A stretch of DNA of 64,000 nt from Schmidtea polychroa (lineage: Eukaryota), in assembly GCA_044892525.1 (NCBI GenBank), contig CM097885.1, positions 25,484,001-25,548,000 of the forward strand. Reading direction: 5' to 3'. The translations under genes were made by a program, and so were the position numbers. Below the pieces are notes generated by a model that was given only the letters and a program-made list of their open reading frames with translations, was not told where the DNA came from and did no database searches. Below are positions 6,219 through 53,252 of this stretch, piece after piece (the stretch's first letter is position 1; every line of letters starts with the position of its first letter).

Positions 6219-6515
6219 TTAATTAAATGTTGAAGGGTCTTTGTCTGGTTTTTCTGTAAACTCAGCCATAATTTGCTCAATTTGACTAGTTTTAATACCA
6301 CAAACACCTTTAGAATATTTAGGAATATTGTACTTCTGACGATGGTAATTATTAGCAATTCGTAAAAAACTTTTAATTTCACTTTCAGAAATCTTTGATT
6401 CAAAATTAGTTGAGCCGATTTTATTTCTTACATAATCACCAAAATTATTACCGGGTTTTGTGATTTTCGGTAATTTATTCAAAATTTTAATTATTTCATT
6501 AAAGGGTCTATTCAT
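6219..6515 (-). CDS. UQCC2: Ubiquinol-cytochrome c reductase complex assembly factor 2-like protein (UQCC2/Cbp6 family), 98 aa
   Basis: FNEIIKILNKLPKITKPGNNFGDYVRNKI and EIKSFLRIANNYHRQKYNIPK..CGI resemble, from memory, the UQCC2 segments [30 protein letters not shown] and [20 protein letters not shown]. Intact ATG-to-stop ORF of suitable size. Confidence 0.62.
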   Translation of the reverse strand: MNRPFNEIIKILNKLPKITKPGNNFGDYVRNKIGSTNFESKISESEIKSFLRIANNYHRQKYNIPKYSKGVCGIKTSQIEQIMAEFTEKPDKDPSTFN

Positions 6516-6761
6516 AAAGCTAAAATAAATATAAATTTATTTAAATTTTTACAAAACTGTTAAAAATTACATTAAATTAAAAAATTATGCTAATAAATAA
6601 GGTAAATTAAAATAAAATCCTGATGACGAATATTAAAACAAATATATTTAATTATATTTAATTTTAATAATATATATTCTAGTAAAGATGGTAGGTTCGA
6701 ATTTTTATTTTATATTTTTTTTTCTTTAATGTTAAAAAAATTAATTATTTCATAAGTTTAA

Positions 6762-12263: not shown

Positions 12264-12381
12264 ATGAGTAATAAGCTAATTTTACATTTTGATGCTCGAA
12301 ACACATTATTTGTGTCGGATTTTAATTCTCGCTTCACGACAGAGAAAGCACTCAATACTTATATTTCTGGTCTGGCATGGG
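12264..12381 (+). CDS. Exon 1 of an uncharacterised conserved HAD-fold-like protein (359 aa in total)
   Basis: ATG at 12264 gives MSNKLILHFDARNTLFVSD...LNTYISGLAW-G, with a HAD motif I-like LHFD. Phase-1 donor G|GTTAGT at 12382 joins in frame to exon 2. Confidence 0.85.
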
Positions 12382-12970
12382 GTTAGTATAATATTTATTG
12401 AATTTGTTTTGATTAAAAAATAATTTTTATTTTAAATTTAATTTTAATCTTATTTAATTTTAATTAATTTATTATTTTGAATTTTCGGATTTTGGTGGAA
12501 AACTTCGAAAGTCGGATCGCTATTTGTATAATATTGATTTCTATTCTAGATTTTGTTTAATTAATACTTGTGTTTCTTCCCATGAGATTTGATGAGAATT
12601 TTCAGTCCTAATCCTCATTTCCTTTATCTCCTCATTTGTCTCCTTCATATCCTCATTTTTATCCAAAATTCAATAAAGTTATACACTAAGTGGCAACTGA
12701 TTGCTAAAATTGATAAAATTGTAAATTATGGACGATTCGGTTTATAAATTTTTAAATTTTGATAAAGATAATCGGTTGCACTTGTAAACAGTTTCTGTGT
12801 ATTGACTAATTTTTTGGTCTCCAGAGGTGATTATGATTTTTCATACGCCATGTTTACAAGTTTACAGATTTGTCTTGTGATGTGATTTCCAGTGTACCGG
12901 GGAAAGTATGCAATTGAGTTGAATCAGCAATATTGTATACTTACCTGGCGCGAGGAGAAATTTTCGCGTC

Positions 12971-13023
12971 TCCTGCATAGAACTGATGAGAGCCAAAAGC
13001 TCGAAACTAGTCTACTATTGGGA
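12971..13023 (+). ncRNA. Minimal type I hammerhead ribozyme (Penelope-like element/retrozyme type)
   Basis: Core CTGATGA 12983-12989; stem II GAGC/CAAAA/GCTC; GAAA 13003-13006; palindromic ACTAGT in place of stem III; GTC cleavage triplet ending 13012; stem I (TCCTG)CATAGAA pairs with TACTAT(TGGGA) with one A.A mismatch. Confidence 0.8.
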
Positions 13024-13518
13024 TTTGCACTGGGTATCACAAAGCTTGTACTGATTATATCATTCAAATTTTAGACATCCGGTAAAAATAAATTTTTTAT
13101 ACCATTATTTAAAAATTAAAAATAACTAACATTTTTTTGAAATAAATTTTCCATTAAAATTCATATAAATAATTAAAAAATGTGAAATTTCCATAATTTT
13201 TTATAAAATCTTTTTTTGGCACTAATAATTCATTTTTCTTTGTATGCAAATCTTGCCAGCTCACGCAATAATTTTTTTTTAATGAAGGGTAGGGTAAATG
13301 TTATTATTCCGTACAAATGGAATCAAATTTTAAGATTTTTTCTTACTTCCCTCGGTCCAATAAAGGTATCTGGAAAGCAGATGTTTGAGAAACATTTGTC
13401 TTATCATTGCAATTTGTCTGGGTCAGAACTTTTTTCATTGTTGTTTTGATTGACAATTGACGTCTTCACTTTTCTTCAATCGTAATGCTAAAGTGTTTTA
13501 TTCTACTTTATATGCAGG

Positions 13519-13721
<203 letters not shown>

Positions 13722-13879
13722 AGGGCTAGTATTAAATTGAGCATTAATTTATTTAAAGAACTATATTAATTTAAATGAAAAAATACATTAATCAATTTAA
13801 GAAATTACATTGGACAAAAATTTCATTATTTAATATTATTTTGAAATTAAAAAATCACAGATCATAATTAATAAAATTG

Positions 13880-14038
13880 TCATTGTCTTAGTGAGGCCTT
13901 TTTAGCTTTCGAAGGTCTTCCTCTCTTGCGCTTGGTTCGAATATCGACATTTTTTGCCTCTGATGATGGTTTGCAATATTTTAATATGATCCCCATACCA
14001 ACCACATGTTTGCAAATGTAATTCTTTAGAAATGCAGA
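13880..14038 (-). mobile_element. Mutator-like (MULE) transposase C-terminal fragment
   Basis: [10 protein letters not shown] (SWIM zinc finger end) followed, after a frameshift, by KPSSEAKNVDIRTKRKRGRPSKAKKASLRQ*, a typical invertebrate MULE tail. Confidence 0.65.
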
Positions 14039-14081
14039 TTTATTTCTCACGAATTTTCGGCACTGCCCTTTTCAAGTGAAC

Positions 14082-14228
<147 letters not shown>

Positions 14229-15396
14229 GTAAATAAATAAATAGCTCATAATATTTTATCTCAGCATATTTTGTCATTAATCGTATTTACATTATATTCA
14301 TATTTCAACTAATTCAATCAGAAGGTTGATTTAATTTAATTAAGCAATATAAACTAAATATTCCAACAAAATTCTCTCAACACATAATTATTTTAATTTT
14401 TTAGCACTTAAAATTGTGCTTTGTTAGAATTGTAGTCTTGTTATGATGCCTAGTGTCAATAATAATATTATATTTTTATAATTAGCCGTTATTATAATAA
14501 ATAATAGGTGTATAAGGGCGTATTTTCCTTTCTATCTAAATAAATTTCTTCTATCATCATATTAACCCTAAAATTAAAGACAAATCACTAAAAATATAAA
14601 AATATGATAATAAGCAAGTAAAAATAAAAAATATTACACTTAACAAATAACAAAAATTAAATACAAAATGAAATGGTCATTATTATCGCCACAAGGATCG
14701 GAATCATACAAGTCATCATAAGTTAATTGTCCGAATTTCAATTTCGAGCAGACCGCCAACCTCAGATTATTTTGTTGTCATATGTATGTTCATCCTATAT
14801 CTGTTAGGCCCTATCATGTAATATTTTAATTTAATGATGGGTAATATTCTTCCATCTTCCAAAATATTTGTGATATTATGTTTTCTATAGACATTTATAG
14901 CTGTCAATTATTTACTATGAATTTTCAATATGGTTTCAAACGAATGTTTTCAGATAATATTTTATTTATGAATTGTTATTTGCATTTTAATTTAAATAAA
15001 TTTTAGTATTAAACATTATTTCATTTAAACAAAAAATAAAAAATACTTTATTAAAACATTTAAAATTATCAATTGTTATTCCGATATTCTGCCGATCCTC
15101 AGACAGAGCAGCACTACAATTAAAATAGATGTCATTTGTGTTTTGTGTATTGTCAATTATTAGAATGTTATTGTACTTTCAATGACACTTCACAATTATC
15201 ATTTCTAGCTATATTATTGAGTGATTTGCATTTTTAAAAAGCTAGATAATTTTTTTCATATAGATTGCACCACCTTTCAAGTCACCTTGAAGCCCTTTCA
15301 CACAATTTATGACACCACAGAACTTTCAATAAATTATTTTTACAGCCAAAATCAAATTGCTTCTTTATTCATTGGAAATGGGAAATTTATTACCAA

Positions 15397-15591
15397 TTGT
15401 TAAAGGTTAATATAAAAATTGTAAATAAAATAAATTCACTATTTTTACAACTTTTTTTTGATATTTGTAAACCTTTATCAAACATTATCAATATGACATT
15501 TTTCACTGATTATTTTCCCTCAGACTTCATGATTTTTGTAATGCACAGTAAAATAATAAATAAATTTGAATTTGTAATTGGTAATTTTTGA
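15397..15591 (+). mobile_element. Decayed non-LTR (LINE) ORF2 fragment just upstream of the RT domain
   Basis: ICKPLSNIINMTFFTDYFPSDF resembles the IxxPLxxIINxSxxxGxFP motif of CR1/L2-type ORF2. Confidence 0.4.
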
Positions 15592-15810
15592 ATAAGGAAT
15601 CCAAACATTCTTAAGGCTCAATTTCTTCTCTTAAAAATCTGGAGAATGTGAAACCCTATTTTGTGAATAGATTGATATTTCAATACTTCTTTTCAAATCA
15701 TACACGGAATGTCAGAGGTTGTATATATATATATATATATATATAGTATTTATTAAAAACTTGACTATGAATCAGTAAAGATATCGATGTTCTTTTTATA
15801 TTCACGAATT

Positions 15811-15924
<114 letters not shown>

Positions 15925-15929
15925 GATAG

Positions 15930-16891
15930 GTTTAATTGTTAATGACCAATGGGAAATGACGCACAAGGAAATCAGTACTAACCAGCCAGATCGTTCTCTT
16001 ATTTCCTTTTATAAATACATGGAAAATAAAATTGTTAAAACGCCTGAAGACCGACCAAAATTAAGAGAAAAGTTAGGAAAATTTACTCATGAAAATGGAA
16101 TAGCGTTTCAAGACATATATTTTGAGCATTTGGAAAAACTTGTGTGGAACTATGAAAACCAACCAGATCTTACAGTTAAAGGAAATAATGACAAACTCTA
16201 TCATTATATTTTGCCTAATTTTTTTCAAACAATTAGCTTTTTATATAAAAACAAAAGAGATTTTGCCATTATCATTCGAACTTTTGGTTTAGACATTCCT
16301 CCGATACTTAGGGCTATTAAAGCATTCATCAATGGTGACCATCCGATGTTTCCTGAAAATATGGACATTAATCTTTGTGACTGGCAAAATGAATTGGTTA
16401 TGGACACAAATAATAAAGAATATGTTTACAACTTTAAGAGTTGTAATGACCAGGAAATCGAAACAACTACCGACGAAGAGGAAATTGTTAAACACTGGAA
16501 CTCTATAAACGGAATAGCCGCAGTAAAGGACGACTTTAAATATTGGTCAGACAACAATTTTCATTACACAGCCTCGAAGCCATTGTGGATCAACCATAAA
16601 TTGGAAGCATCAGGCAAAAATTGTCATCACATATTTTTTGATGACTGCATTCGACCAAGGGACACCGACAGCATTGTGCATTTACGTTACCTGAAACCAA
16701 ACAGAGCAGATCTTACGATTTCTTCGAATGGAATTCCAAACAGCAGTTCAATTCTAGATCAGCAACAAACAGAAAAGTATCTCAACATAAATTTGGTACA
16801 GTCGGATTTGCTTGACTGCATTCGTAATAATAATTATTTCATTGACAAAATCAAGAACTGCGAAAAGAATTTTTCTATGATCAAGTTTTGA
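15930..16891 (+). CDS. Exon 2 of the uncharacterised HAD-fold-like protein
   Basis: Acceptor GATAG| at 15928-15929; G|GT TTA ATT GTT restores frame. Motifs IIIRTFGLD and HIFFDDCI (HAD motif II/IV-like); stop TGA at 16891; AATAAA near 16993. Confidence 0.88.
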
Positions 16892-19513: not shown

Positions 19514-19917
19514 TGTTAGAAGAAGACATAGTTTCACAGAAATCTTTATTCACTTCAAAAATCTAAACGGAACACACAATCGTTATACTATTTATAGTAC
19601 ATTGAATTGCGTAATCTACAAAAGGGAGAATTATTAGTTTAAGTCAGTGGTACGCAAACCTTTTACCTCCCGGCACAAAATAGAAAAAAAAGTCAAGACA
19701 TAAATAGAAAGAATGTATTTTAAATTCTTTTACGGCACACTAATATGCCGCGGCACATAGTTTGCGTACCACTGGTTTAAGTGATACTGTTGACACAGAA
19801 GACAAACATACTTACTTAATTTAGTTAATCAAGCATTCCCGCATCATTCAATAGATATCAAGGTCTAGTGACCTGGTTATGTAAGTAATTCGTTGGAAAT
19901 TATTATATCATCTTACA
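19514..19917 (-). repeat. 3' LTR of Gypsy 1 (contains a MITE and the TATA box)
   Basis: Matches 25619-25872 (254 bp) after removing the 130-bp MITE, its 8-bp TSD and a 12-bp TATA-containing segment. Confidence 0.95.
19645..19774. mobile_element. 130-bp hAT (Buster-type) MITE
   Basis: TIR CAGTGGTACGCAAAC / GTTTGCGTACCACTG; perfect 8-bp TSD GTTTAAGT (nnnTAnnn); absent from the sister LTR. Confidence 0.95.
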
Positions 19918-21820
19918 TCCCCCTCCATTTAAAACTTTTGATCCATTCTACATTTCGAATTATTTCTTTGCCTTGCTTATTCTTTAGAACATAGCTTCTG
20001 TCATGTCGTTTTCCAGTTATTTCATAAGGCCCTTCATAACGTTCATCCATCTTTCTAGTATTTTCTTTTTAACCAATACTTGGTCTCCAACTTCAAAATT
20101 CCTATAATTTTGTGTAATTAAATTCTTTTCTATGTTTTGTTTATGTTTAATTCCCTCCACGATCTCCCTTCTTCGATTATTAGCATCATTATTTTGTATA
20201 TCCAAATTCTCTTTTTCCATCCATTGTCTACAAATATTCCGCCCAAATATTATTTCAGAGGGCGAAAATCCGGTTGTCTGCTGTATCGTCGCATTTAACA
20301 TAAATTCCACATCTGGCAATATTTCTGCCCAATCTTTATGCCGTTTGTCTTTTAACGTAATTGCAATTGCATCCCTTATAGTTCTAAATTGCCTCTCAAC
20401 TAAATCGTTTGTACTATGATGATATGGGCTTGAATATATTATTGTAATATGATGCGTTTTCAACACTTCTAAAAGGAGTTGAGATTCAAATGTTTTTCCT
20501 CTATAGGAGTGAATGATTTTAGGGGCACCAAATTTTGTTTTGCACCAAACTGTTTGGCACTTACTACATGAAGTACAGTCTTTTCTTGATAGGGCATCTG
20601 CGTTAGCATGGAATTCTCCTTTTCTGTATTCTAATTTGATATCTAGCCCACTTAAATAGTTAATCCATGTTTGGAATTGTGCTGTAATTGGCTTTTTTGT
20701 ATTTATCATAAAGGTTATAGCTTTATTATCGGTTCTTAAAGTAAATCTTTTTCCATATAGATAGTGTTTGAAATGCTGAGTAAAATGATAGATTGCAAGC
20801 AATTCCTTTCGCGTAATGCAGTAACCGATTTCGTGCTTATTCATTGTCTTTGATCCATATGCAATAACTTGTTCTTGTCCATTACTACTCAACTGCGAAA
20901 GCACTCCCCCAATCGTATCGAAACTAGCATCTGTATCTAAAATAAAGGTTTTTCGTAAATCCGGAAATCCTAGTACTGGGGTAGACGTTAACGCTTTCCT
21001 TAGAGTGTTGAAATTTGTTTCACATTCTTCAGTCCATATAAGTTTATCTTTGTTAGACCCACATAACCTTTCTAATGGTCTTGCATACTTGGCGTAATCT
21101 TTAACAAATTTTCGATAATAATTTGTTAAGCCTAGAAAGTTTCTTAAACGTTTAATACATTTTGGTTTTTCGTATTCTTGCATTGCTTTTATCTTTTCAT
21201 AATCTGTCTTAATACCATTTTTATTTATAATGTGTCCCAAAAATTTTATTTCTAGTTTGTAAAAACAACATTTTCAACTATTTTCAAACCAGCTTCTTGA
21301 ATCTTTCGAAAGACTCTTTCTAGTCTTTTTTATGTTCGATTTCATTGTCTGCAAATATAAGGATATCGTCTAAATAGACAATTGCTTCTCTCCAATTAAG
21401 ATCACCCAAAATTTGAGTCATTAATTTTTGAAAAGTTGCTGGGGCAGCTGAAATTCCAAAAGGCATTCGGTTAAAACAATATTGACCATCTTTTGTTGAA
21501 AATGCAGTCTTTATTTTTGATTCCTCTTCTAATTCCACTTGATAATAAGCATTATCAAGATCGATAGTGCTAAATATCTGTGCTCTATTTAGGATATCCA
21601 TCATCTCTTCAATATTTGGTATTGGAAATCGAGGTCTCTCCGTAATTGCATTTAGTGCCCGAAAATCCAAACATATTCTAATATCTGATTTATTCTTTTT
21701 TAACACACATACCAATGGGCTATTCCACACCGAGTCACATTTTTTTATAATTCCTGCTTCTTCCATGTCTTTTAGCATGTCTTGTATTTTGTGAGCAATA
21801 TGAATCGGCTGACGTCTAGG

Positions 21821-24618
21821 CAGTGGCGTAGCCAGAAATTTCAGAGGGGAGGGGTGCAAAATATTTTTTTTATTAAAAAAGTCCTAGAAATTCGTAATAA
21901 GTTTTGCCCTCAAAACCCCAGAGCTATTTCGAATGAATTTGATAAGTATATTTAAACATGGTAATAACATTTATTCTTGATCAAAGGAATTCACACGTCA
22001 AGTCGTCGTTTTCCTTTGCGGAACTCGCATATAAATTCATCAAAATTAACTTCCGTGTCACGATGAATGCTCAGAAACATTAGTCCGTTGAGTCTTTCCT
22101 CTCCTGTTGTATTTCTGTCGTCCGTTTTAAGTTGCTTCATTTTGCTGAAAGAGCGTTCGACGTCAGCGGTTGTTATGTGAATCACATTATAGATTTTCAG
22201 CAATCGGAACACGTTTGGGAACATTTCTTGAGGGCAAGCTTTTAAATGTTCCATTGAAGTCCGTGGTTTTACTGTTGCATTTCCCAGTCTTTTCTGCCAC
22301 ATCTCAACTTCTCCGAAAAACATCTGCACTGATCCGTTCAAATCTTCCACGTAGAAATGGTAAAGTTGCATAAGACTGTTCTGAACTTCTCTGCTCAACA
22401 GCCACTCTGGGTTGAACATTATATTTTTGAAATTTGCAAGCACTGCGTTTTCTCGAAATTTTTCTTTGAGCTCTCGACATACCGAATTCAACAGCGGGAT
22501 GAACAGACAACTATAATAAAACTCTACAGGCTGCTGATTTATTCCATCTAATCTTGGCCTTCCTTTATTTTTCAGCAATGAAATTTCAATTTCAAAGCAA
22601 GATGCTACGTCAGATGTTTCTTTGAATAAGGTTTGAAAATGGTCTTTGCTGTTCTCAGTAACCGTCTCAAGCTTCTCGATGAGATCATTGGTCGATGCTA
22701 TGGCAGTGCTATAATCTATTGAAGGTGATTGCAGAAGCCGACTTAACGGCAGGATGAAGTTGAACACGAATTTTAATGTGACAAGAGTAATAATGAAGTC
22801 GAAAGTCGACACTGTGTTAAGAAAACCTTGAGCTTTCACATTATCTTCGTTGTTACTCCATTCCGAAATTACATTCAACACGTCAATTGCTGGCTCGAAA
22901 AGTTCGAAGAATGTGTTGACTGCTTCGTGTCGTTCAATCCAGCGCGTTTCGCAAGTATTTTTTAGCTTTCTCTTAGCAGTTTCTGGCATTGTTTTCTCGA
23001 TTGATTTGCCAAATTCAACTTGTTTTTTCGGTGAGTTTAAGAAGTTGTAGATGCTTTTAATTGTGCCAAGACACAGGGTTATCTGCTTTACTTTGCAGCT
23101 TTCTCCAATGACCAAGTTTAATCGATGACTGAAACAATGTACGTAAGTAACCAGAGGAAAATTTTCCCGGACCATTGCCGAAACGCCTGATTTCCTTCCA
23201 CTCATCACTCTTGCTCCGTCTAAGCCAATTCCTCGACACTTTTCCATTCGTAACTTCATCGTGTTTGCCATGCTTAACAATGAGTCAGTAAGTCCTTTGT
23301 CAGTAACATCACACAAATCTGTGAGCATTGAAAATGTTTCAACAATATTATCGGCATCAATGTCGATAGAACGGAGTCCAATCGACATTTGTTATATTGC
23401 GGAAACATCCGATGACTCGTCGGCGAGAATAGAGAAAAATTCAGACTTTATAACTTTCTGAAGAAGCTTCGTCAAAGCAATCTCATTAATTATAACGATT
23501 ATTTCGTTCTGCATTGTGCTACTTAAGTATGTAGCATTTTTTGGCGAACTTTCTAATGCATTCCGAAAAAAATCGTCCCTCGAAGCAAGAAGTCTAATCA
23601 GATTTCTGAAGTTTCCGTCGTTGATGCCCTGTTGGTCGTTAAATATCCCGCCAGAATCTCTATGCGAGCGAGATAATTGATGGTGTCAAAAATTCCTTCC
23701 AAAAGAATCAAATTTTGCTTTCTTTCAACTTCTTTCTGCCTCGTCAACAGTCGTTCAATAGTTATTTCGGGGTTTTTGTTGACTACATAGAGAGTTTTTG
23801 CTGTTTCAATTGATCGTAAATGGTATGGCGCTTTTGCATGAGCAGTGAAAGTTTCACGGCACTTTTGGTAATTCTTGAAAGGTGTTCGGACAAGCAGTGA
23901 TCCAACTTGATCCCCGATCGCAAAGAAAAAGCAAAATTTGCAATAAAGTCCATCTCCTGCAACCGAGTAAATCAGCCAATCAAACTCACACAGCCAGTGA
24001 TAACTTAATTTCCGCTTTGTTGCCCCTTTCATTACTGCCGGGAAACTGAAGTGTGGTGGAGGATTTTTAAGCTTGCCCAAAGCATCAATTTTTTCAGAGT
24101 CATTTAATTGTGACCGCCGATATGACTCTATATCAGCTTCTTGGCTTTGAAAGGCACTACGTTCCTCCTTTTGTTCAGACCCCCCTCTTTTCGGCCACCG
24201 GTAACTCGAAGTTTTGATCGAAATCGTTTTCCTCCGTATCAACTTTTGATGTCTTAGCAAAAAATTTGGAAAGCGAACCCTGATGATGTTTTTTCATGGC
24301 TAAAATCGATTAAAAATTAAAATTCAATGCAAGTAAAGACATAAAATATAATTGCTATTTACTGCAACTTTACGAAATATGAAACTAATTTTATCGAGCA
24401 CTAACTATAATATTGTTTATTTACACTGTATCGTCCCTCGAAAAATTTATTGGGTCATTCCATTAGGACAATCTTCGATATTCAATTAATAGAAGCTTCT
24501 TGGCTCAATTAAATGTCTCATGAGACAATTATTCGGACAAAAAAAACCTAGCATTTCAATTATTTCGTCTGGAAGAAAGGGTGCAAATGCACCCTTGCAC
24601 CCCCTGGCTACGCGCCTG
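21821..24618 (-). mobile_element. hAT transposon B (P52rIPK/THAP12-like transposase) inserted in the Gypsy 1 pol
   Basis: TIRs CAGTGGCGTAGCCAG and CTGGCTACGCGCCTG; perfect 8-bp TSD CGTCTAGG at 21813-21820 and 24619-24626. Confidence 0.95.
21991..24297 (-). pseudogene. hAT-B transposase, frameshifted
   Basis: Likely ATG at 24297 (MKKHHQGSLSKFF). WLIYS..LYCKFC (TTF), ILADESSD, LDGA, HCFSHRLNL, CETRWIER and TTADVERSFSKMK; pieces in ORFs 23598-24260 and 21991-23388. Confidence 0.9.
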
Positions 24619-24899
24619 CGTCTAGGATTAATTGTCACTGGGATACCTCTAGTAACTATCTTATGTTTAATTAACTGTGTTTTTCCTACATCCCATTTAT
24701 TTTTCATGAATATATCCGAAAATTCTTTAAGTAATTTATTAGTCGTTGGGTCGATAATTCCTTTCAAATTGTTTTCCTCTAAATTCATTAATTGAATTTT
24801 TAATTTTACTTTAGTTACTGCCTATAATTTAATATCAAAACAATTCATCATTTCTACGCCTGCAATTACGCTCGGGTTAATCTTATTTGCCACAACATT

Positions 24900-25619
24900 G
24901 CTCTCCACACGCCCAACATCTCTGCAGTCTAAATCGCTTGGTCCCGTTCTTCCAGTCACTTTTATTTGGCATATTGAAATTCACGGCCTAATTGGTTCTA
25001 GAGTTAGAAAATATTGGCGTCTTATTCTGTTGGTACAACTGAGTTTTCTCGGACTTTTGACTGTCTCCGCATATGATTTATTTTCATGTAGAGATGCTAA
25101 TGATTGTTCACTTGAAAGCTCTTTTTGAATTTCTTCCATTCTTGATATCACTTCCTTGGCCTTATCTACTGATTTAACTTCTCTTAATTTCAATTCTTTT
25201 TTTGTTTCCATATCTTCCATTGCATTCTGCATTAAAAATAACATTAATGCCGGTTTTGTTAATTTGTGTCGAAGAACATTGTCGACGAGCTTTTCCACTT
25301 TATTGAAAAATTCGGTGCACGAGTCATTTCCTTTTCGATATCTTAAAGCTGCGTCTAGATCCATGGCTAGATTTTTCTTTGGCTCGAACGCTTTTCTTAA
25401 TCTTTCTTCATAGCCTGAATAATCGCTCTGTACTTCTTCATATTTCTGGATCAACTCTACCGACAGAAAGGCCTTGGTAAAAATTTCTTGAGTTTCTTGC
25501 GGTTGTTGAGTGACTTCGAAAAATCTCTTCAATTCCAAAATAAAAATTTTTAAATCACCATTTGGCAGCAATTGATTAGGTGGCTTGATATAGTTCTGGA
25601 GTCCTGGCGTGGTCGCCAT
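24900..25619 (-). pseudogene. Gypsy 1 gag (starts MATTPG at the LTR/PBS junction), truncated in the first zinc knuckle
   Basis: Aligns with the Gypsy 2 gag (FILELKRFF, EERLRKAF, FFNKVEKLVD); CWACGE is followed by a deletion. Confidence 0.85.
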
Positions 25620-25872
25620 GTTAGAAGAAGACATAGTTTTACAGAAATCTTTATTCACTTCAAAAATCTAAACGGAACACACAATCGTTGTACATTGAAT
25701 TGCGTAATCTACAAAAGGGAGAATTATTAGTTTAAGTGATAGTGTTGACACAGAAGACAAACATACTTACTTAATTTAATTATACAAGCATTCCCGCATC
25801 ATTCAATAGATATCAAGGTCTAGTGACCTGGTTATGTAAGTAATTCGTTGGAAATTATTATATCATCTTACA
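25619..25872 (-). repeat. 5' LTR of Gypsy 1 (254 bp, TATA deleted)
   Basis: TG...CA ends, near-identical to the 3' LTR, adjacent to the PBS. Confidence 0.95.
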
Positions 25873-29652: not shown

Positions 29653-30323
29653 TAGTGGTTCCTAACCTTTATAATACTGCTACCCCTGTAACCTGTTAGG
29701 AAATCAAATTTTACCCCAATTTTAAAATGTTATAAAAACACTGAATGCAAGCGAATTCTAATGTTTATTAATTACAAAGTTGTCATTACCCAGCAGTTAG
29801 TCAGAAAACTGGTTACATTGTGGCTACATAAAACCACAACAATATTACGAAATTTTAACTATGAATTAGTAATAATAATCAGTGTGAGGTTTGAAATTGT
29901 TTTGCGTTTACAAGTTTTTTCATGTTAGGTTTAGTGTAACTTAAAGCACATCTCATGTCATGTTCCACATTGAGAGGGTTTCTGGCCTTTGTTTTCAATG
30001 AAACTAAAGTTGAAAAACCACTCTCGCATCTGTAAGTGGTGGCAAAAGGTACTATCGTTTTTAAAGCTCTGTTAGCTATAACAGGATATTCGGCACCTGC
30101 TTTAATCCAAAATCTGCTGAGATCATACATTTGATCTCAGTTCGGACAGGTTTATACATGTCGAGTATTTGTTTCGAGCGCGGAGGATTCCGCATGCGTG
30201 ATGCGCCGGTGACTCAGGATTCAGCCTTCGGTTAACAAATTGTTCTCTGTTACCCCTGAAGAATAGTTTGTTTACCCCCCCCCCCCCCGGGGGGGGTAAT
30301 TACCCCTAGGTTCGGAACCCCTG
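29653..30323 (-). mobile_element. Internally deleted Buster-type hAT (671 bp)
   Basis: TIRs TAGTGGTTCCTAACC and GGTTCGGAACCCCTG; perfect TSD CCATAGAA. Retains the transposase C-terminus at 29879-30130 (PFATTYRCESGFS..QFQTSH). Confidence 0.9.
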
Positions 30324-30489
30324 CCATAGAAAGACTTACTTATCTGTAAAATAGTTAAATAAATAATTATTGTGAAGAATAGTCTTTGTATGATTTCTGA
30401 ATCAGAATTGTGTTGAATCTATATTGTAAATATGTTTCAATATTGTTGTTTCTTAGTTATTAAATATGAAACACTTATGAAACACTCAT

Positions 30490-34000: not shown

Positions 34001-36086
34001 TTTTTAAAATTTATATTATTATGACAATTTCTCTTGTAATTATTATAGGAAAATTAAAGAAAATTAATTTAAGTTATTTTTTCTAATCTTTAATCCAATG
34101 GTTGGTTGTTTAAACTTTGTTAAATTTTAAAATTTTATTTGCAAATGGAATAAGTTTGTTTTTTTTGTGATCAGTTTGAATTTTTAATAATAGAATAAAT
34201 CGAAATGATATTATTGTTAAATTCAATATCATTTTTGATTTTTAATGGATTCTCTAATACTAAGTTATAGAAACTGCTATTATAAAGGTTAGTAATTTTT
34301 GAAACTGTTAATGTTCTATATTGGCATATTTTGTAATATATAATAAGCATATTTTTAAATTTTATTAATAAATAAGTTTTTCAAAAAGTTTTTATAAAGG
34401 TTAGCAATTTTGTTAATTTAAGTTGAATTAAGACCAATTATATTTTCCAGTTTATATTTTTTAGCCTTTCAGTTTAACTTAAAAATCGGTTAGACTATGT
34501 GATGTGTACTATGGTTATATGTAGAAAGAAGTAGTTTTATCTGACGATGGTAGAAAAATGTTCACCTTGATTAATCGATCTTGAGTATTTTATAATTTAA
34601 TATATAATATTCACTACATGAAGTCTATTATTATTCTCAATGTTATACTATCATCTAGAGATCATTTTTCCAATGCCTCCTCTATTTCAGTACTCAATTC
34701 TTTTTGTCTAACCGCTTCGACAAATCTTGCCACTACAAAAATGTTAAACTAGCTTCAGTTTTTTCTATCTGGGCTTCTTGCAGTTTTGACTGAACTTATA
34801 ATTTTGGTTTTGTCTTACGAAGTGATTCAAGTTCTTCTGTGTAGTAGCTATTTATAACTGTTACAAAGTAATAACAGGCACAGAAATTGTCAGATACGGA
34901 GAAAATTATTAAAGCCCAAGATGTATTTCAGACATATTTGCATCCAAGGTTTGTTATTGATCTTGGTGGTTTTTGGGTCTAATTGTGTAGTCAGTAATCT
35001 GGACAAACAGACAAACGGACATTCATTCACAACTATATATTATATTTTTGGCTGATTATCTAATTATTATTTGCTTTTAAATACTAGTCAATACAATTAG
35101 TGTATAATTTCCTGATTTATGCTACTCTAACCCTCTGATCGCAATTCATATCCATCAGATGATATTATTTTTAAAGTCCCGGTTCGCAAAATGTAATTTA
35201 TATATTTAAAAACATGAACTGAACATTTTTATGAACGCCCCCCCCCCTCAAATCATACAGTCATTACCCATTACCTAGGTATACCAAATTAGTTTATTTT
35301 AATATATATTTAATGCATAATGTATTGGAAAATATAGATTGTAAGTTTTCATAAACGATCCCCCCTTTTGTGGTAACCTGAAAAAATACAAACTTACCTT
35401 TGTTAATATTATTATCATTATCAATATTATTATTATTATTATTATTATGATTCATAGTAATAACATTATTACCGTTAGTATTACCCCTCTCATTATTATT
35501 ATTTCTATTAGCATTATTATTATTACCATAATTTTATTCCAGTATTATTAAAATATTATATTTATTTTATACAACTAAAATTACAAAACAAATTATCGAT
35601 TTTAGGATTCCCCTTATTGTCGAGATTGGGGTTAGCGTACTTGATCCAATGAAAATCATCCAAATTATTAAAATCTATTTTTGGTAACACACACACCCCC
35701 CGCGAGAAACGATAGTAATAGCAATAATTTAAACCAAAATTACATATAGGTATGTGTGTGTGTGTGTGGATATAAAGGTATAAAATAATGTTTCCCCGAA
35801 TAAACTCCAAGATGTGCATTAACCATAACTCTAAGGTAATAGAATAAAAATACAATGGTGTATTAAAGTCATTGGTTATGTGCGTTTTTTGGCTTTGACA
35901 TTTGGATTGATTTGTGTGCGCCCACGGACGCGGACAATTGTCGAGTTTAATAATCGAATTTTTTTGTAAGTCAGATTTTGATATTTTCTTTAGCTGGAAA
36001 TTTTATGTGAATTTGTCAAGTTTGTTTTTTAAAGATTGGGAGTTTCTGGAAGTGTTTTTGAAAATAAATTTTTGTAAATTTCTTTA

Positions 36087-36655
36087 ATGGCTACGATTAA
36101 TACAGATAATTACTATTATCATAAATGCAACAAGGACGTTCACATATCTCAGGATGGTAAATGTGTGACGTGCAATGATGGATTTATTGAAAGAATTGAA
36201 TCTGATAACTCAATGGAAAGTGATGATGATGCCTTGAATGTTTTTCATATTATTCGTCATATTCCTGGTGGAAGTACTACAAACGAAACTGATGGTTCTT
36301 TTTTTATTACTCCAAGAGATCCTGATAACAGAAATAGTGTTTTTGGCCAACTAATATCAAATTTATTTGCTGGATTGCTACCTCTAGATTTTAGATCAGA
36401 TTCGTCATATTACATATTTTCAGATCAAAGTTTCGACAATTTTGTAACGAGAATTATGAACCAATTTGAACAGAGTGGTCCTCCAACAGCAAATGAGGCT
36501 GATATTGAGAAATTAGAAGTCAAGAAAATCACCGAAGCTAATGATACAGGTTCCATTTGTCTGTCAGATTATGAGGTGGCCGATGAAGTGTACGAGTTGC
36601 ACTGTCAACATAGAAACCCTGTTCAGTGTCTAAAAACGTGGTTAATTAAACAAGG
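36087..36655 (+). pseudogene. RNF115/RNF126-like E3 ligase (N-terminal zinc ribbon plus RING-H2), degenerate and 3'-truncated
   Basis: YYYHKC..CVTCNDGFIERI, FDNFVTRIMNQFEQSGPPTANEADIEKL and GSICLSDY..LHCQHRNPVQCLKTWL. Several zinc ligands are lost and the final CPxC is replaced by LTR sequence. Intronless. Confidence 0.75.
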
Positions 36656-37422
36656 TGTTTGGGAAAACAATTTCGGTAAGGGACCTGCGTAAATCGGACA
36701 CATGCCTTCTAAAGGTAGTCCGTGGACTCATAGAGTACTCGACAATTATATTGTTGTTGGTGCGCTCACTTTTTGCGAGTACTCACCCACTTGATACAGT
36801 ACCAACGTTGATTACTCAACGGGTATCAAGCGGTAAAACAATGTTGTTTTTTGGGTTACGCTGGTAACAGCACTATAGAATGAACAATTGACCACCATTA
36901 ACCCACCATCTGTCAGAGATAAGTAGGGACAGTGGAAAATGCGGAAGGAAAAAATGGGAAAACAAAATTATCTCAATGTAACGAACTATAAAAGGGTAAG
37001 ATACAGAAACCAGACAGAGTTAGAAAGGAATTAGAAAAGAGTTAGTTAAAAAAGAGTTAAAAAGTTGAATAAAAAGAGTTCAGAATTAAGGAGATATTTG
37101 ATTGGAAGGATAAAGAGAATCTTTGAAATCTAATATAAAGGTGAAAAAGGAGTGAATAATTGTGGTCAAAGCAATCGACTAATGTATTCCTGGGATTAAA
37201 TCGGTCGGCGATTAGTAATTATTATTGTTATTGGAATAATAAGCTCTGGATACTTGTCTATATTAGAATTGATAGGCTGTAATTGCAACTTGTAAAATCT
37301 ATTGTAATTATTAATAAAGGTTATCTTGTTTGAATTTGTAAATTTGTGAATTGATAAAACACGCTTAGAGTCAGACGTAATTTTTGAATTTATAACTCAT
37401 CACCGATCCTATAAACCCAACA
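36656..37422 (+). mobile_element. Solo LTR-like element
   Basis: TGTTTGGG...CCCAACA inverted ends, TATAAAAGG near 36988 and AATAAA near 37068 and 37313. Flanks CAAGG and TTATT do not match. Confidence 0.6.
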
Positions 37423-47200: not shown

Positions 47201-48960
47201 ATTTCGTCAAAATGAGAAAATAAATATATATCTTAATAGTTGATGCCAGTATTAAAAAGCTGAACGACATAATATATTCATGAAGTTGTTGCGATCGACC
47301 ATATCAAGAATTTTGCCTTGCCATTGTATTGGTGCAGTTAACCCAGCCCAGGGAATAAATTTTTGCAACCCCACAACATAGACTTACTATATTCTAACAA
47401 AATTGTCATTCAAAGTTTAATGTTTTCATGGAAAATGACTATAATGCAGATAGTTATAATGTTTAACCTGAAGTAATAATTGGAATAACCTTTCGTCTTC
47501 AAGATCCATTTTACCTAAAGTTGAATATCTTTAGCTAATAAAATAACCATTATCTACCAATAGCCGACAGATCTAGATAAAGAATTAGAAAATTTAATGA
47601 ATAAACGTTTCGAACAATAATAAGTATTCGTAAATTAATACCATGAAAAAACAAATATGGCCCAGTGGCCAATGAGTAAGCCGGAGCGTACAATCGTGCT
47701 TGGTGAAGGCGAAGTGGGTACCCAAACGTATAGCGGAGTACTAGCAGCTCGTCAGTCACCAGCAAGATTGAATTTTCCGGCAGCTGGTCATAAAATATCT
47801 CTAAAACCAAAATCTAAAATGGGACACTTAAATAATAATAATAATAAACAGTGGTGATATTAAATTTACGTAATGGTGTAGTCAAACACTGGATAATTAT
47901 TTCCAAATTTAATCAGGAAGTTTGATTGAAATAAAATTCTTAAAAAATTTTACAATAATTAGATTTGACTTGCCTGGGTAGGAAGAATTTTTTTTATTAA
48001 AAGAAAAAATTGATTAAACTAAATTCAACTGAGCTTTCTACTATTCAAAATTTTATAGAACCTGATCTAACACTTCGAAGTTATGTCATAATCGGTCCGA
48101 AGTTCTATCCAGCATAGACGATTGGTGTGATGAATCTTGATGAATAAATATATGTGTCCTCGAGTTTTGCATTGACTTCTTTTTAACGAATAGGGTAAAT
48201 AACTTATAGGTCGAATAGAAGTGATTCTCACTAGCCTATACAAAGTAATACGAGGCATAAACCCAATAGATACAATAACTCGCCGATATCGTATATAGAA
48301 AAATAGTAGTTTGCCTATAAGGATTAGGTGCATCGGTATAACGATGTGCGTGCATTTGAAGGTGCATGTGTGTGGTTTGCCTGAGATAGAATGTGTAATT
48401 AATAAAGGCACTGATAGACCGAAAAATCGATAAGCAAACCGATGGGTAAGTGTGGACACACCCAGTTGCACACCGGTATTGTCGCCAGCTATATAAGACA
48501 TAGTAAGTAAATAATCATCGAATTATTTCTAGTCAACTAATGCCTAGCTATAAACAACACGACGATGATTTCATTGTTTGCTTCGTTTTCTTTGGCTTGA
48601 TGTCCTTGCTGTTATTCGAAAATTAATATTTCTGTTTCATTTTGATATAATCTAGAAATATAAATTAATTAAGATTAACTTAAATTTTTGGTGGATTTTA
48701 GTAGATGGATTGGTCACCGCGAGAACAAAGACATTTTCACCCCCGGCCGGAAAATTTTTTTTCAAGGTCAAATTGAAAACAAAGACATATGACTCATCAA
48801 GGTCATTGAAACAAAGACCATGACTCGTCAAGGTCATTGAAACAAAGATCATGACTCATCCGATGACTCGCCAAGGTCATTGAAACCAAGACCATGACTC
48901 ATCCAAGGTCATTCTCAATGTCGTATGACTCATCAAGGTCATATTATTATTTTTAAAAAT

Positions 48961-49680
48961 ATTATTATTTCTAATGTCTTTGTTCTCGCGGTGACCTACT
49001 ATTTGGCCTGCCAAAAGTTATCGTTCCCATCAACTTATTTCATCGGTCGATAGCTTATTTTAAAGCTTGGTGCAAGACCTTTCGAATGAGCTATTGCTGT
49101 CATCACCATCTTCAATATTGACAAAGTTATTAACATTTTCCCAAGAGCATTTCCAAAGTCATTTGACAATTTTATTATTATTTTTAAAAATATTATTTTT
49201 TCAAAGTCTTTTTTCAAGGTCATATTTTAAAATTAAACTTTACAGAGTTTCCGCCAACGAAAATCAGTAAACGATAGCTCATTTTAAAGCCCAAATCAAG
49301 ACCTTTCATATGAGCTATATATCTTATTATTAACATTATTATTTCAAAAGTCTGTTCTTGCGGTGACCTACTATTTGGCCTGCCAAAAGTTATCGTTCCC
49401 ATCAACGTATTTCATCGCTCGATAGCTTACTTTAAAGCTTGGTGCAAGACCTTTCGAATGAGCTATTGTTGTCATCATCTTTAATATTGGCAAAGTTATT
49501 ACCATTTTCAAGGTCATTTGTTTTTTCTCAAGGTCATTTGTTTTCTCAAGGTCATATTTTAAAATTAAAATTTACAGAGCTTCCGCCAACGAAAATTAGT
49601 AAACGATAGCTCATTTTAAAGCCCAATTCAAGACCTTTCGTATGAGCCATATATCTTGTTATTAACATTATTATTTCTAA
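48961..49680. repeat. Tandem duplication of a ~350-375 bp TIR module
   Basis: GTGACCTACTATTTGGCCTGCCAAAAGTTATCG...GCCCAA.TCAAGACCTTTC occurs at about 48991 and 49363, and inverted at about 51370-51645. Confidence 0.9.
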
Positions 49681-49837
49681 AGATATTATTATTATTATTA
49701 TTAATAAAAAATCCTATCAACCGATAAATAATGTTGCGTGCCCACTGCAACACTATTACACAATAAAAATATAAAATTTCTAACAAAATTCTTTCAAAAG
49801 TTCTGTCATCAGGATCCACACGAATCTCCTCATTAAC

Positions 49838-49838
49838 A

Positions 49839-49898
<60 letters not shown>
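49838..49898. repeat. (TTA)n microsatellite inside the Polinton-like element
   Basis: Direct reading. Confidence 0.95.
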
Positions 49899-50156
49899 TT
49901 TCGTTGGAATCTTTTAATAAAATACTAACAACAGATAAATAATGTTGCATGCTCACTGCAACACTATTACACAATAAAAATATATTATTATAAAAATTCT
50001 TACAAAAGTTAACACTTGTGTGAAATAATCAAATTTTTATACATTTATACAAGCGTTTAACTGTTGTAAGAACCTTGAAAACTATCACCAGTTTTCAATA
50101 AAACGAAATAAAACAATATAAAGACTATTTTTTAAAAAAATATATTAAAACACAAA

Positions 50157-51160
50157 TTAATCTGATAAAATGACATCGTCAATATGGATGCCGATTTCGA
50201 ATATCTGGCCAGGATTATCAGGATCCGAGTGATCGTCAAAGTCTGGACTCAAGCCACCAAAAAGTGGTCCTACTTCAGAAAATATCTGACCATCATCAGT
50301 TTCGTCAAATCCTAAATAATGCCCATATGCCAGACTGGAATTAGGCCCCATCCATAGTCTCTTGTCATCGTTGTTCGACAAGGCTATTTTACTGTTCTTA
50401 AAAGTAAAGAGCTGGTGGTTACGCGTCCCTATTCTAGTTTGTGGCACCGTATATACTACGCTGTTGTTGTAGCAGTCTAAATAAGACTGGTGCCTTATCT
50501 CAGTATTACCAAGCTGAACTCCCTTAGCCCTAAGTGTTGCCTTATCTCCTAACAAACTATAACACTTAGGGCGCAAGAAAACCCACTCCTTATAACCAAG
50601 CCCTTTACTTTCGTCCTTAAATTTCCCTATCACAGAATCCAAACTCTTTGAATACAAAGGATGAGCAGGATCATAATTGCTGGTATCTAGAAGATTATCA
50701 CGAATCATTGCCGGCAAAAGAGTGTCAAGCTTACAGTGCTTTATCTCTAAGAAAAAAGAGTCGGTGTCGCCGGCAACGATATTTATATCACAGTTAAACT
50801 CTAAACGATATTTTGCCAATTCTATATACTGTAACTCGTACATCCTCAGTTTAGACACGTCTAGTACAGATTGGCCAATGTAGCTAGGCCTGTCTAAACT
50901 TATAGAATCCTTATTTAGATGTGCAGCAATCAAGTCATCATCAATTTTGATTGCTTTCTTGAAAGTCGGCTTTGAAGCATATACAATCATCTTTTCAGCT
51001 GAATTCCATAGCCTCAAATTCATCCGTTTTTAAGGTTTTCCACGGATTTCCCATACAGACTATCATTAAATAGTTTATATAAATCTCTGTGCAGCTCGCA
51101 TGTAGAATTTGAGCGCAAAATAGTATTGGTCTCTATATAATCTTTAAGAATGGGTACATG
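50157..51160 (-). pseudogene. pPolB C-terminal remnant (copy 2)
   Basis: Highly similar to 189-1269, with downstream similarity extending to about 49930 (equivalent to ~1490). AGDTDS motif intact; 1-nt deletion near 51030; cut abruptly at 51160. Confidence 0.9.
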
Positions 51161-52088
51161 AGTAGATGGTTAGGAGCCCGCTAACTCACATACCCCCTCC
51201 CCCGGTCTGAAAAATTTTATTTTTTAGAACGATGCCTCATATTTTTAGAATTAATAATAAAATCATATGATGGGATCACTAACTTGTTGCATTACCAAAA
51301 GTAGGTCTCCGCTAGAACAAAGACATTAAAAATAATGATGATAATAATAAGATATATAGATCATTCGAAAGGTCTTGAATTGGGCTTTAAAATGAGCTAT
51401 CGTTTACTAATTTTCGTTGGCGGAAACTCTGTAAATTTTAAAATATAACCTTGAAAAAATAATATTTTTAAAAATAATAATAAAATTGTCAAATGACTTT
51501 GAAAATGGTCTTGTCAATATTAAAGATGATGATGACAACAATAGCTCATTCGAAAGGTCTTGCACCAAGCCTCAAAATAAGCTATCGACCGATGAAATAA
51601 GTTGATGGGAACGATAACTTTTGGCAGGCCACATAGTAGGTCACCGCGAGAACAAAGACATTAGAAATAATAATATTTTTAAAAACAGTAATATGACCTT
51701 GATGAGTCATACGACCTTGAGCATGACCTTGGATGAGTCATACGACCTTGAGAATGACCTTGATGAGTCATGGTCTTTGTTTCAATGACCTTGGTGAGTC
51801 ATCGGACGAGTCATGGTTTTTGTTTCAATGACATTGATGAGTCATGTGAGGAAGATTTAATTATTAGCACAATATAATATTATAATAATAAATTACATCT
51901 GAATTATTACTATTAAGAAATTAACATATACATATATTAAAGTATTATATTCGTATTATATTATGGCGTACATAATTATTATTGTTATTTAGAAATGCTT
52001 AATCGTCAATTTAAGGATTTGTTTAGTCAAACCGATATTGTTATAATTTTTGAATATAATTTGAATTCGACTTCTAGTTTTATTTAAC

Positions 52089-53252
52089 ATGGCGACCCTG
52101 GCAATAGTGAATAAGATGATTCCGGATGTTTACGACGGAAGACACGAAATCGAAACTTTCATTGAAGAATGTAAGCGATATTTTCAGTTATGTGGGTTAG
52201 ATCAAGATAACCAAAATATGATGATAAAATGCCTTATTTCAAGAGATATTTTACCGATTTATGAAGCCGTCGATGTCAAATTTATTAATTTTGAAGATAG
52301 ACTCAGAGAAGCTTTCAAGAAGCCGTCAACACTGATAGGCGATTTTCTGAACTTATACAATTATGAGAAAGATAACGATGCAGCGCCAGTGTTTTTCGAA
52401 AAGATTGAGAAAATGGTCGACAAAGTATTGAAACACAAGTGGGATAAAAACGAATTAGTCGCTTATTTTTTGATACATTGTGTCAAAGACAAAGAAATCC
52501 AAAAAGAGATCAAGATGCGAGATGCTTTAAAAGTCGAAGAGATCAAGGACGTAATTCGTAAAGTTGATGCTATCAACATTGAAGTTTCTAGTATTGCAGT
52601 TATGCAAAGAAAAGAAACGTTCGCAAACGTAATAAAGAAACGACAAGGATTTGCCGATATACAAGATCGACAACGCAATTTTTCAAATGTTCAAGAAAGA
52701 CGAAATTTTGAACCAAGATTCAATTCTATTCCGCACGCTCAAAGCTTCGATTCTGGAAGGAATACTAATCAACAGTATTACCATAGAGACAACAGAGCAA
52801 GTGGAAGTCGCGTTGTTACATGTTGGAATTGTCAAGAACTAGGACATTCGAGTCGAGAATGCCCAAAAAAGAAGTGTTATGGATGTGGAAAAGAAGGACA
52901 CATGATTAGAGAATGTAAAAATAACAAGATAAATTCAGAATTGAGATGCAACGCTTGTAAGGAATCTGGCCATCACCGGGGAGAATGTCCATCGATTTCA
53001 TGCTCAGGATGTGGAAAACGTGGTCATTTGCGGTTTCAATGTTGGGCAACAGCAGACACACGATCATCAGGAAGAAACCAATCTAGAAATTACGAGGATA
53101 ACAGACGATATCAAGACAGATATGCCGATGGAAGAGTGGCAGCTATGGAAGACCGCGGAAACGAAGCGGAGGATTCTCAGTCTACCCGAAGTGATGGACA
53201 CCCAAATGGGAGGGCTCCATCATTAGGCGAGATGATAGGAGCCATGCATTAA
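52089..53252 (+). CDS. gag: Gag with four CCHC zinc knuckles (387 aa)
   Basis: CWNCQELGHSSREC, CYGCGKEGHMIREC, CNACKESGHHRGEC and CSGCGKRGHLRFQC. Confidence 0.93.
   Translation: MATLAIVNKMIPDVYDGRHEIETFIEECKRYFQLCGLDQDNQNMMIKCLISRDILPIYEAVDVKFINFEDRLREAFKKPSTLIGDFLNLYNYEKDNDAAPVFFEKIEKMVDKVLKHKWDKNELVAYFLIHCVKDKEIQKEIKMRDALKVEEIKDVIRKVDAINIEVSSIAVMQRKETFANVIKKRQGFADIQDRQRNFSNVQERRNFEPRFNSIPHAQSFDSGRNTNQQYYHRDNRASGSRVVTCWNCQELGHSSRECPKKKCYGCGKEGHMIRECKNNKINSELRCNACKESGHHRGECPSISCSGCGKRGHLRFQCWATADTRSSGRNQSRNYEDNRRYQDRYADGRVAAMEDRGNEAEDSQSTRSDGHPNGRAPSLGEMIGAMH

Follow-up and report, generated by a model that had tools for sequence, protein, structure and literature searches.

As described in PMC4209133, the canonical metazoan type I hammerhead has 6 bp in helix I, 4 bp in helix II and 1-2 bp in helix III, the last capped by a palindromic loop of 2-4 bases, whilst the minimal hammerheads of Penelope-like elements (PLEs) have an extra base after position 9, a longer helix II and a short helix I. 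Animal retrozymes are 170-400 nt long, have a GC content below 50% and are heavily self-paired (Cervera & de la Pena 2020, PMC7229834). They often occur as solo monomers and within introns, 43.9% being intronic in X. tropicalis (Li et al. 2026, bioRxiv 10.64898/2026.07.22.740005). Metazoan retrozymes are presented in a review (PMC7761336) as seemingly lacking promoters, and the same source leaves the origin of their very high RNA levels in animals as an open question. Among other hammerhead repeats, newt satellite 2 is credited with an internal snRNA promoter (Coats, Zhang & Epstein 1994, via PMC2220036), and the schistosome Sm-alpha repeat places its hammerhead (PMC6765202) behind a Pol III promoter (PMC2220036). 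The LIN families of planarians have rRNA and tRNA genes as their targets, and the passage on them in PMC4640811 does not mention U1.

Here we describe a hammerhead locus of Schmidtea polychroa, analysed within a stretch of 64,000 nucleotides (the window), whose features are collected in Table 1. The hammerhead itself is of an already known kind; what appears to be unreported is the start of U1 snRNA inside a retrozyme-like unit. The preliminary description had placed the ribozyme in sense orientation inside an intron of a HAD-like gene. This intron is backed by P0001, a single continuous protein that matches both exons, and the sense placement stands; the HAD-like label is not confirmed, none of P0001, P0004 and exon 2 having matched a Pfam family. 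The setting is that of an AT-rich animal gene, and the host gene (12264-16891) belongs to an animal family without a Pfam match, the named homologues from our searches being those of a mollusc and an annelid (34-36%).

Table 1. Features of the host gene, the structured unit and the hammerhead, in window coordinates.
Feature	Position	Strand	Basis
Exon 1, host gene	12264-12381	+	39/39 identity to P0001 N-terminus; translation
Host intron, GT..AG, phase 1, element inside in sense	12382-15929	+	P0001 continuous across
Exon 2, host gene	15930-16891	+	269/318 identity to P0001; ORF
Structured unit, likely retrozyme monomer	12676-13050	+	Approximate ends, from folding only
Long predicted hairpin	12693-12779	+	z -5.10 (+), -0.49 (-); bounds picked after folding
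Predicted branched domain, 11-bp closing stem	12780-12861	+	z -4.92 (+), -2.58 (-); bounds picked after folding
5' arm of stem enclosing hammerhead domain	12882-12896	+	Sequence, fold
Predicted hairpin; 3' arm is the U1-like stretch, 5' arm masks U1-like bases	12897-12948	+	z -5.10 (+), -1.92 (-)
U1-like start, 16 bases	12937-12952	+	16/16 to Schmidtea mediterranea U1A1 snRNA 5' end, from base 1
Short predicted hairpin, GAAA tetraloop, between U1-like start and ribozyme	12949-12968	+	Fold
Type I hammerhead, whole motif	12977-13018	+	Sequence, Rfam, full descriptor
Helix I, AUAG-A-A / U-A-CUAU	12977-12982 / 13013-13018	+	5/6 pairs
CUGAUGA core	12983-12989	+	Sequence
Helix II GAGC/GCUC, loop CAAAA	12990-13002	+	Sequence; 4/4 pairs
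GAAA core	13003-13006	+	Sequence
Palindrome ACUAGU, helix III	13006-13011	+	Sequence
GUC	13010-13012	+	Predicted cut after C13012
3' arm of enclosing stem	13026-13040	+	Sequence, fold

The hammerhead at 12977-13018 is a real motif, beyond what chance would provide. CUGANGA, GAAA and UH follow one another in order with G10.1-C11.1 present, and the full descriptor finds one site in the real window, whereas among 2546 dinucleotide shuffles 31 contain any site and 9 a site with a short helix III. The complete core, the 4-bp helix II, the ACUAGU palindrome and the GUC ending at 13012, all of which had been reported previously, can be read directly in the sequence; helix I has an A-A mismatch at its second pair, beside the core. 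The search with Rfam hammerhead models that had been proposed as a check did return RF00163 from a 191-nt stretch at 25.3 bits (E 2.4e-4), although below its gathering score of 34, and a 1-kb scan gave HH9 as the best match by E-value (20.3 bits, E 0.038), again below gathering. Across the window no Rfam match reached the gathering threshold, and the hammerhead is absent from the matches of the whole-window scan at E<=1. Further candidates were discarded, i.e. a minus-strand hammerhead (after strand reading and the descriptor scan), a decayed second hammerhead 394 bases upstream (its best alignment was equalled by 35 of 850 control tiles), and weak snoRNA and other Rfam matches.

Hammerheads of this kind are known and common, and intronic ones of such a type are ordinary in invertebrates. 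Read from its sequence, the build is of the canonical retrozyme type and not of the minimal Penelope style, in that helix II has four pairs with a canonical loop and no extra base stands after A9, between positions 9 and 10.1. This bears on the proposal that the locus is a solo pseudo-LTR (pLTR) of a Penelope-like element into which a piece of U1 was captured incidentally. The pLTR hammerheads are likewise type I with a palindromic helix III, occur mostly as single motifs and depend on dimers, as is predicted here, and a PLE with a hammerhead is on record for S. mediterranea, according to the available text of Cervera & De la Pena 2014 (PMC4209133); retrozymes have, moreover, been argued to derive from pLTRs (bioRxiv 10.64898/2026.07.22.740005, in part). 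The metazoan PLE motifs, that of S. mediterranea included, nevertheless differ from ours in exactly the two respects just named, and the extensive self-pairing described below resembles that of retrozymes. Consistent with the earlier remark that no Penelope reverse transcriptase or GIY-YIG domain is visible nearby, there is no PLE frame close to the unit, GIY-YIG matches number 0 in the 44 ORFs scanned (32 from 7.9-19.6 kb and 12 from the rest of the window), although a solo pLTR would not need one, and the RVT_1 matches fall within, or next to, frames that encode LTR-type RNase H domains. We consequently regard a pLTR origin as improbable. Of the two classes offered in the preliminary description, a dimer-needing retrozyme monomer fits best, with the family inferred, whilst the solo pLTR has become the less likely on account of the motif build.

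The hammerhead sits near the 3' end of a larger structured unit, 12676-13050, overlapped by no reading frame longer than 62 codons. The enclosing stem previously reported is present, with arms starting at 12882 and 13026 as claimed, but of the ~375 structured bases that description took in only ~160, and the 16-base U1 start escaped it. On the plus strand the unit folds with an MFE of -118.9 kcal/mol (z -7.25, equalled by 0 of 100 shuffles), compared with z -1.83 and 6 of 100 on the minus strand; here and in Table 1 the fold boundaries were picked after inspection, which inflates the z-scores, and the folds are covariation-free predictions. The predicted fold is a series of back-to-back helices with 74% of bases paired and 20 G-U among 139 pairs. 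When 375-nt tiles are corrected for GC content and G-C skew, the unit is the most stable of 506 (six tiles over an AT microsatellite being excluded), and second in this ranking, with a nearly equal score, comes a grid tile at 12751 that was not chosen by hand. With 160-base tiles (1596 starts, both strands) the unit is ninth, the eight tiles ahead being AT microsatellite. The third most stable composition-corrected 375-base tile lies at 30001-30375 on the plus strand (-3.3 sd, GC 0.43). Taken alone, the upstream part (12680-12880) still folds on the plus strand, with z -3.76 (1 of 200 shuffles) as against -0.57 on the minus strand (58 of 200). It is therefore probably part of one RNA with the hammerhead, as a circular or tandem unit would predict.

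With its canonical type I hammerhead, 2-bp palindromic helix III and non-coding, self-paired extent of ~375 nt, the unit resembles the animal non-LTR retrozymes, from which it differs in bearing a U1 5' end, unmentioned for theirs in the available parts of the sources, and in being known here from one genomic monomer. The unit is single, with no second copy or tandem unit in the 64-kb window, and the best candidates for a target-site duplication or terminal redundancy are 7 nt long, about chance level. Such a single copy might instead be a domesticated RNA comparable to the intronic hammerheads HH9/HH10 of amniotes, retained at this site for processing the intron or yielding a small RNA. That HH9 heads the Rfam matches by E-value in the 1-kb scan, that the ribozyme lies in sense in an intron, that the fold is strong and strand-specific, and that no second copy occurs in the window would all accord with this. 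The helix III palindrome, however, suggests a function in tandem copies, helix I is mismatched next to the core, and the missing copies reflect a 64-kb view together with collections that are mostly prokaryotic; domestication therefore appears doubtful to us.

The U1-like start (ATACTTACCTGGCGCG, at 12937-12952) consists of the 11-base splice-site arm followed by 5 bases of helix H, and begins 76 bases upstream of the predicted cut. A comparison by eye was made with PMC6312358, whose S1 table gives 11 expressed S. mediterranea U1 variants, U1A1 having the most reads; U1A1 alone among the 11 matches all 16 bases, and beyond base 16 the sequences diverge. Given the conservation of the U1 5' end, the match does not hinge on a planarian source. 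Rfam RF00003 aligns to its first positions only (7.4-10.1 bits against a gathering score of 69.5), the consensus agreeing over the first 13 bases. The chance of the 16-mer is 1.4-4.7e-11 per site and ~0.5-2e-8 within a 375-nt unit, and, as the match was noticed post hoc, we estimate it at about 1e-6 once a hundred memorable motifs are allowed for. A single exact match to the 16-mer was found in 2.9 million viral contigs, in an unrelated sequence with no Rfam match at gathering. The presence of a U1 start inside a retrozyme-like unit is thus well supported as a fact of the sequence, known from one copy.

The unit is not a U1 gene. Compared with U1 snRNA (RF00003) it is without the U1-70K loop, the U1A loop in its stem and stem-loop III, none of which was found in or near the element or elsewhere in the window. 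We therefore rejected both a whole or variant U1 gene, given also the low Rfam scores, and an insertion at base 16 with the remainder of the gene elsewhere in the window. The Rfam scan showed no snRNA gene in the window, and an Sm-like run at 13091 is one of 130 such runs across it. Crocodilian SINEs of the SINEU type are alike in bearing U1 5' sequence within a mobile element (Kojima 2015, PMC4494074), but as far as the available text describes them they have long U1/U2 heads at the 5' end and a poly(A) tail, with no ribozyme mentioned, whereas here 16 bases lie internally and there is no tail.

The resemblance to U1 might also be fortuitous, or reflect a perfect minus-strand splice donor, in an otherwise ordinary retrozyme copy. 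The reverse complement of U1 bases 1-11 is indeed the donor consensus, near-donors are frequent in the window (2 sites with at most 1 mismatch and 15 within 2), and the U1-like stretch forms one arm of a hairpin. Against this, the next five bases match U1 helix H, which a donor does not constrain (a further factor of ~2e-4), each of the three minus-strand frames is interrupted by stops no more than 300 bases upstream of this supposed donor, and the ORFs in that area have no Pfam matches, so that we consider this explanation very unlikely.

The predicted accessibility of the U1 piece depends on which RNA is considered. The probability that U1 bases 1-11 are unpaired is 0.11 in the whole unit, 0.89 in an RNA from 12937 to the cut and 0.51 in 12937-13050, and the hairpin that masks them pairs 5 bases past the U1 5' end. 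The stem arm at 12882-12896 falls 41-55 bases upstream of the U1-like start, which is about the position of the proximal promoter element of snRNA genes, taken from vertebrate genes in the available text of PMC4494074; it is accordingly a putative element, by analogy. A bacterial promoter scan was disregarded as irrelevant for an animal host.

We tentatively favour, with a probability of roughly 0.4, the reading in which 12676-13050 is a solo non-LTR retrozyme from a family that took up the beginning of a U1 gene along with the promoter. The capture would have occurred at the DNA level and included the upstream promoter. In the cycle that we envisage, RNA polymerase II would initiate at U1 +1 within a unit of some head-to-tail array elsewhere in the genome, two adjacent hammerheads would join by way of their ACUAGU palindromes and then cut, and the short capped leader, starting 76 bases before the hammerhead that trims it, would be discarded. 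In newt satellite 2 the distance from start site to cut is reportedly a few dozen bases. Closure of the unit-length RNA released by two cuts would give a tightly self-paired circle with the U1 bases masked in their hairpin, and a Penelope-type reverse transcriptase would copy such circles into DNA, giving dispersed monomers like the one described here. As snRNA promoters lie outside the transcribed RNA (PMC4494074, available text), such a promoter can travel only with a tandem or circular element, in which each unit copies the promoter of the next. Promoter capture is consistent with a motif beyond chance, the canonical metazoan build, the ~375-nt length, the GC content below 50% and the heavy self-pairing; it is weakened by the double role required of bases -40 to -23, as promoter DNA and as masking arm, and by the view, in the review cited above (PMC7761336), that metazoan retrozymes seem to be promoter-less. 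It would, as in newt satellite 2 and Sm-alpha, put a small-RNA-gene promoter upstream of the ribozyme inside the unit, with the differences that the snRNA piece itself is present here and the promoter inferred, unlike in newt satellite 2, and that the promoter of Sm-alpha is a Pol III promoter.

A close, though somewhat unlikely, rival is that a retrozyme monomer took only the 16 bases of the U1 5' end by a template switch of reverse transcriptase, gaining no promoter and being transcribed by read-through; at the moment of capture, the donor-like arm at 12897-12914 may have held the U1 RNA by base pairing. The addition of U1/U2 pieces in this manner is documented for SINEU and chimeric retrocopies in the available text of PMC4494074, a template switch equally predicts a boundary at U1 base 1, and a near-complementary arm does lie 23-40 bases upstream. 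Yet two jumps would be required and nothing would explain why the piece was retained; the hairpin pairing extends 5 bases past the U1 5' end, and the piece stands just upstream of the hammerhead, the place of the promoter in other hammerhead repeats. Promoter capture is favoured because it supplies a selective reason to keep the U1 piece.

Under promoter capture, self-cleavage might additionally act as a switch, the circle hiding the U1 splice-site arm and the capped 76-base leader exposing it, such that the leader could be a U1 decoy at 5' splice sites. This rests on the predicted folds and seems to us improbable; if true, it would tie a selfish RNA circle to host splicing.

Folding predictions were also used to gauge the activity of this copy. 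In the predicted monomer ensemble helix III has no pairing probability and a competing helix invades the core, the opening of which costs 5.4 kcal/mol. The core helices of a double hammerhead evaluate at -9.4 kcal/mol versus -4.0 for two monomers, i.e. 5.4 lower, so the monomer is predicted to be inactive and the double hammerhead to be favoured. It had been suggested that the element might cleave the host pre-mRNA. With one copy in the window, helix III unformed, the cost of opening the core and the mismatch in helix I, efficient cutting by a lone copy is unlikely on these models, and with no partner in cis and competing pairing in the core, the copy at 12676-13050 is predicted to be nearly inert for its host gene.

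Relatives were sought in viral, prokaryote and metagenome collections rather than in animal genomes, and blanks in these carry little weight. Exact and degenerate hammerhead core patterns gave 0 matches in the viral contigs and 0 in the prokaryote genomes, and the true-U1 pattern gave 0 in the viral contigs. A metagenome scan for a U1 start plus hammerhead core returned 55 stretches, which we take as chance and rejected as relatives, since none is alike beyond the U1-like 12-23 bases; four pairs stand at the helix II position in 2 of the 55 (one sequence twice). Sequence words of 12700-13200 occur in 20 of the 23 sequencing runs listed, with at least half of them present in three runs, all from one study that is possibly the source of the window. 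None of the 23 listed is an RNA run with a substantial share, and the shares of 0.06-0.09 in runs guessed to be RNA or sediment are not evidence.

Our literature search, mainly of open-access texts and short of the supplement of PMC7229834 (invertebrate retrozymes), turned up no hammerhead repeat described as containing part of U1. The newt snRNA-promoter case stands rather alone, and a U1-headed unit in another phylum would offer a sharp test. If promoter capture is true, it would suggest a recurrent borrowing of small-RNA promoters by hammerhead repeats; if the piece is only a template-switch relic, it would still be a minor yet clear record of the capture of U1 by a ribozyme element.

The window contains further mobile and coding sequences. 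At 157-1496 and 49930-51154, ~49 kb apart, a decayed DNA polymerase B-like frame is present in two inverted copies that are 92-98% alike; they look Polinton-type by eye, and neither frame tested has a Pfam match. Around the second copy are nested short direct repeats (48789-49989 and 51257-51741) and a 231-base inverted pair (48894-49124 / 51511-51741) resembling the end of a Polinton-type element. An LTR retrotransposon at 51844-57012 is bounded by identical 246-base LTRs (51844-52089, 56767-57012) and is apparently very young; it contains a gag-like frame and a pol frame of 1201 codons that includes reverse transcriptase, RNase H and integrase. A related LTR element on the minus strand (19775-25872), with 143-base repeats 97% alike, is interrupted by a hAT transposase frame at 21991-23391. 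On the minus strand at 6219-6536 there is a very divergent frame of the UQCC2/CBP6 family (Pfam PF20180, 30.6 bits), for which the homologue search was empty. Finally, 36078-36692 is a single-frame zinc-ribbon and RING gene, its RING seemingly shortened, that is 90% identical to a 220-residue protein.
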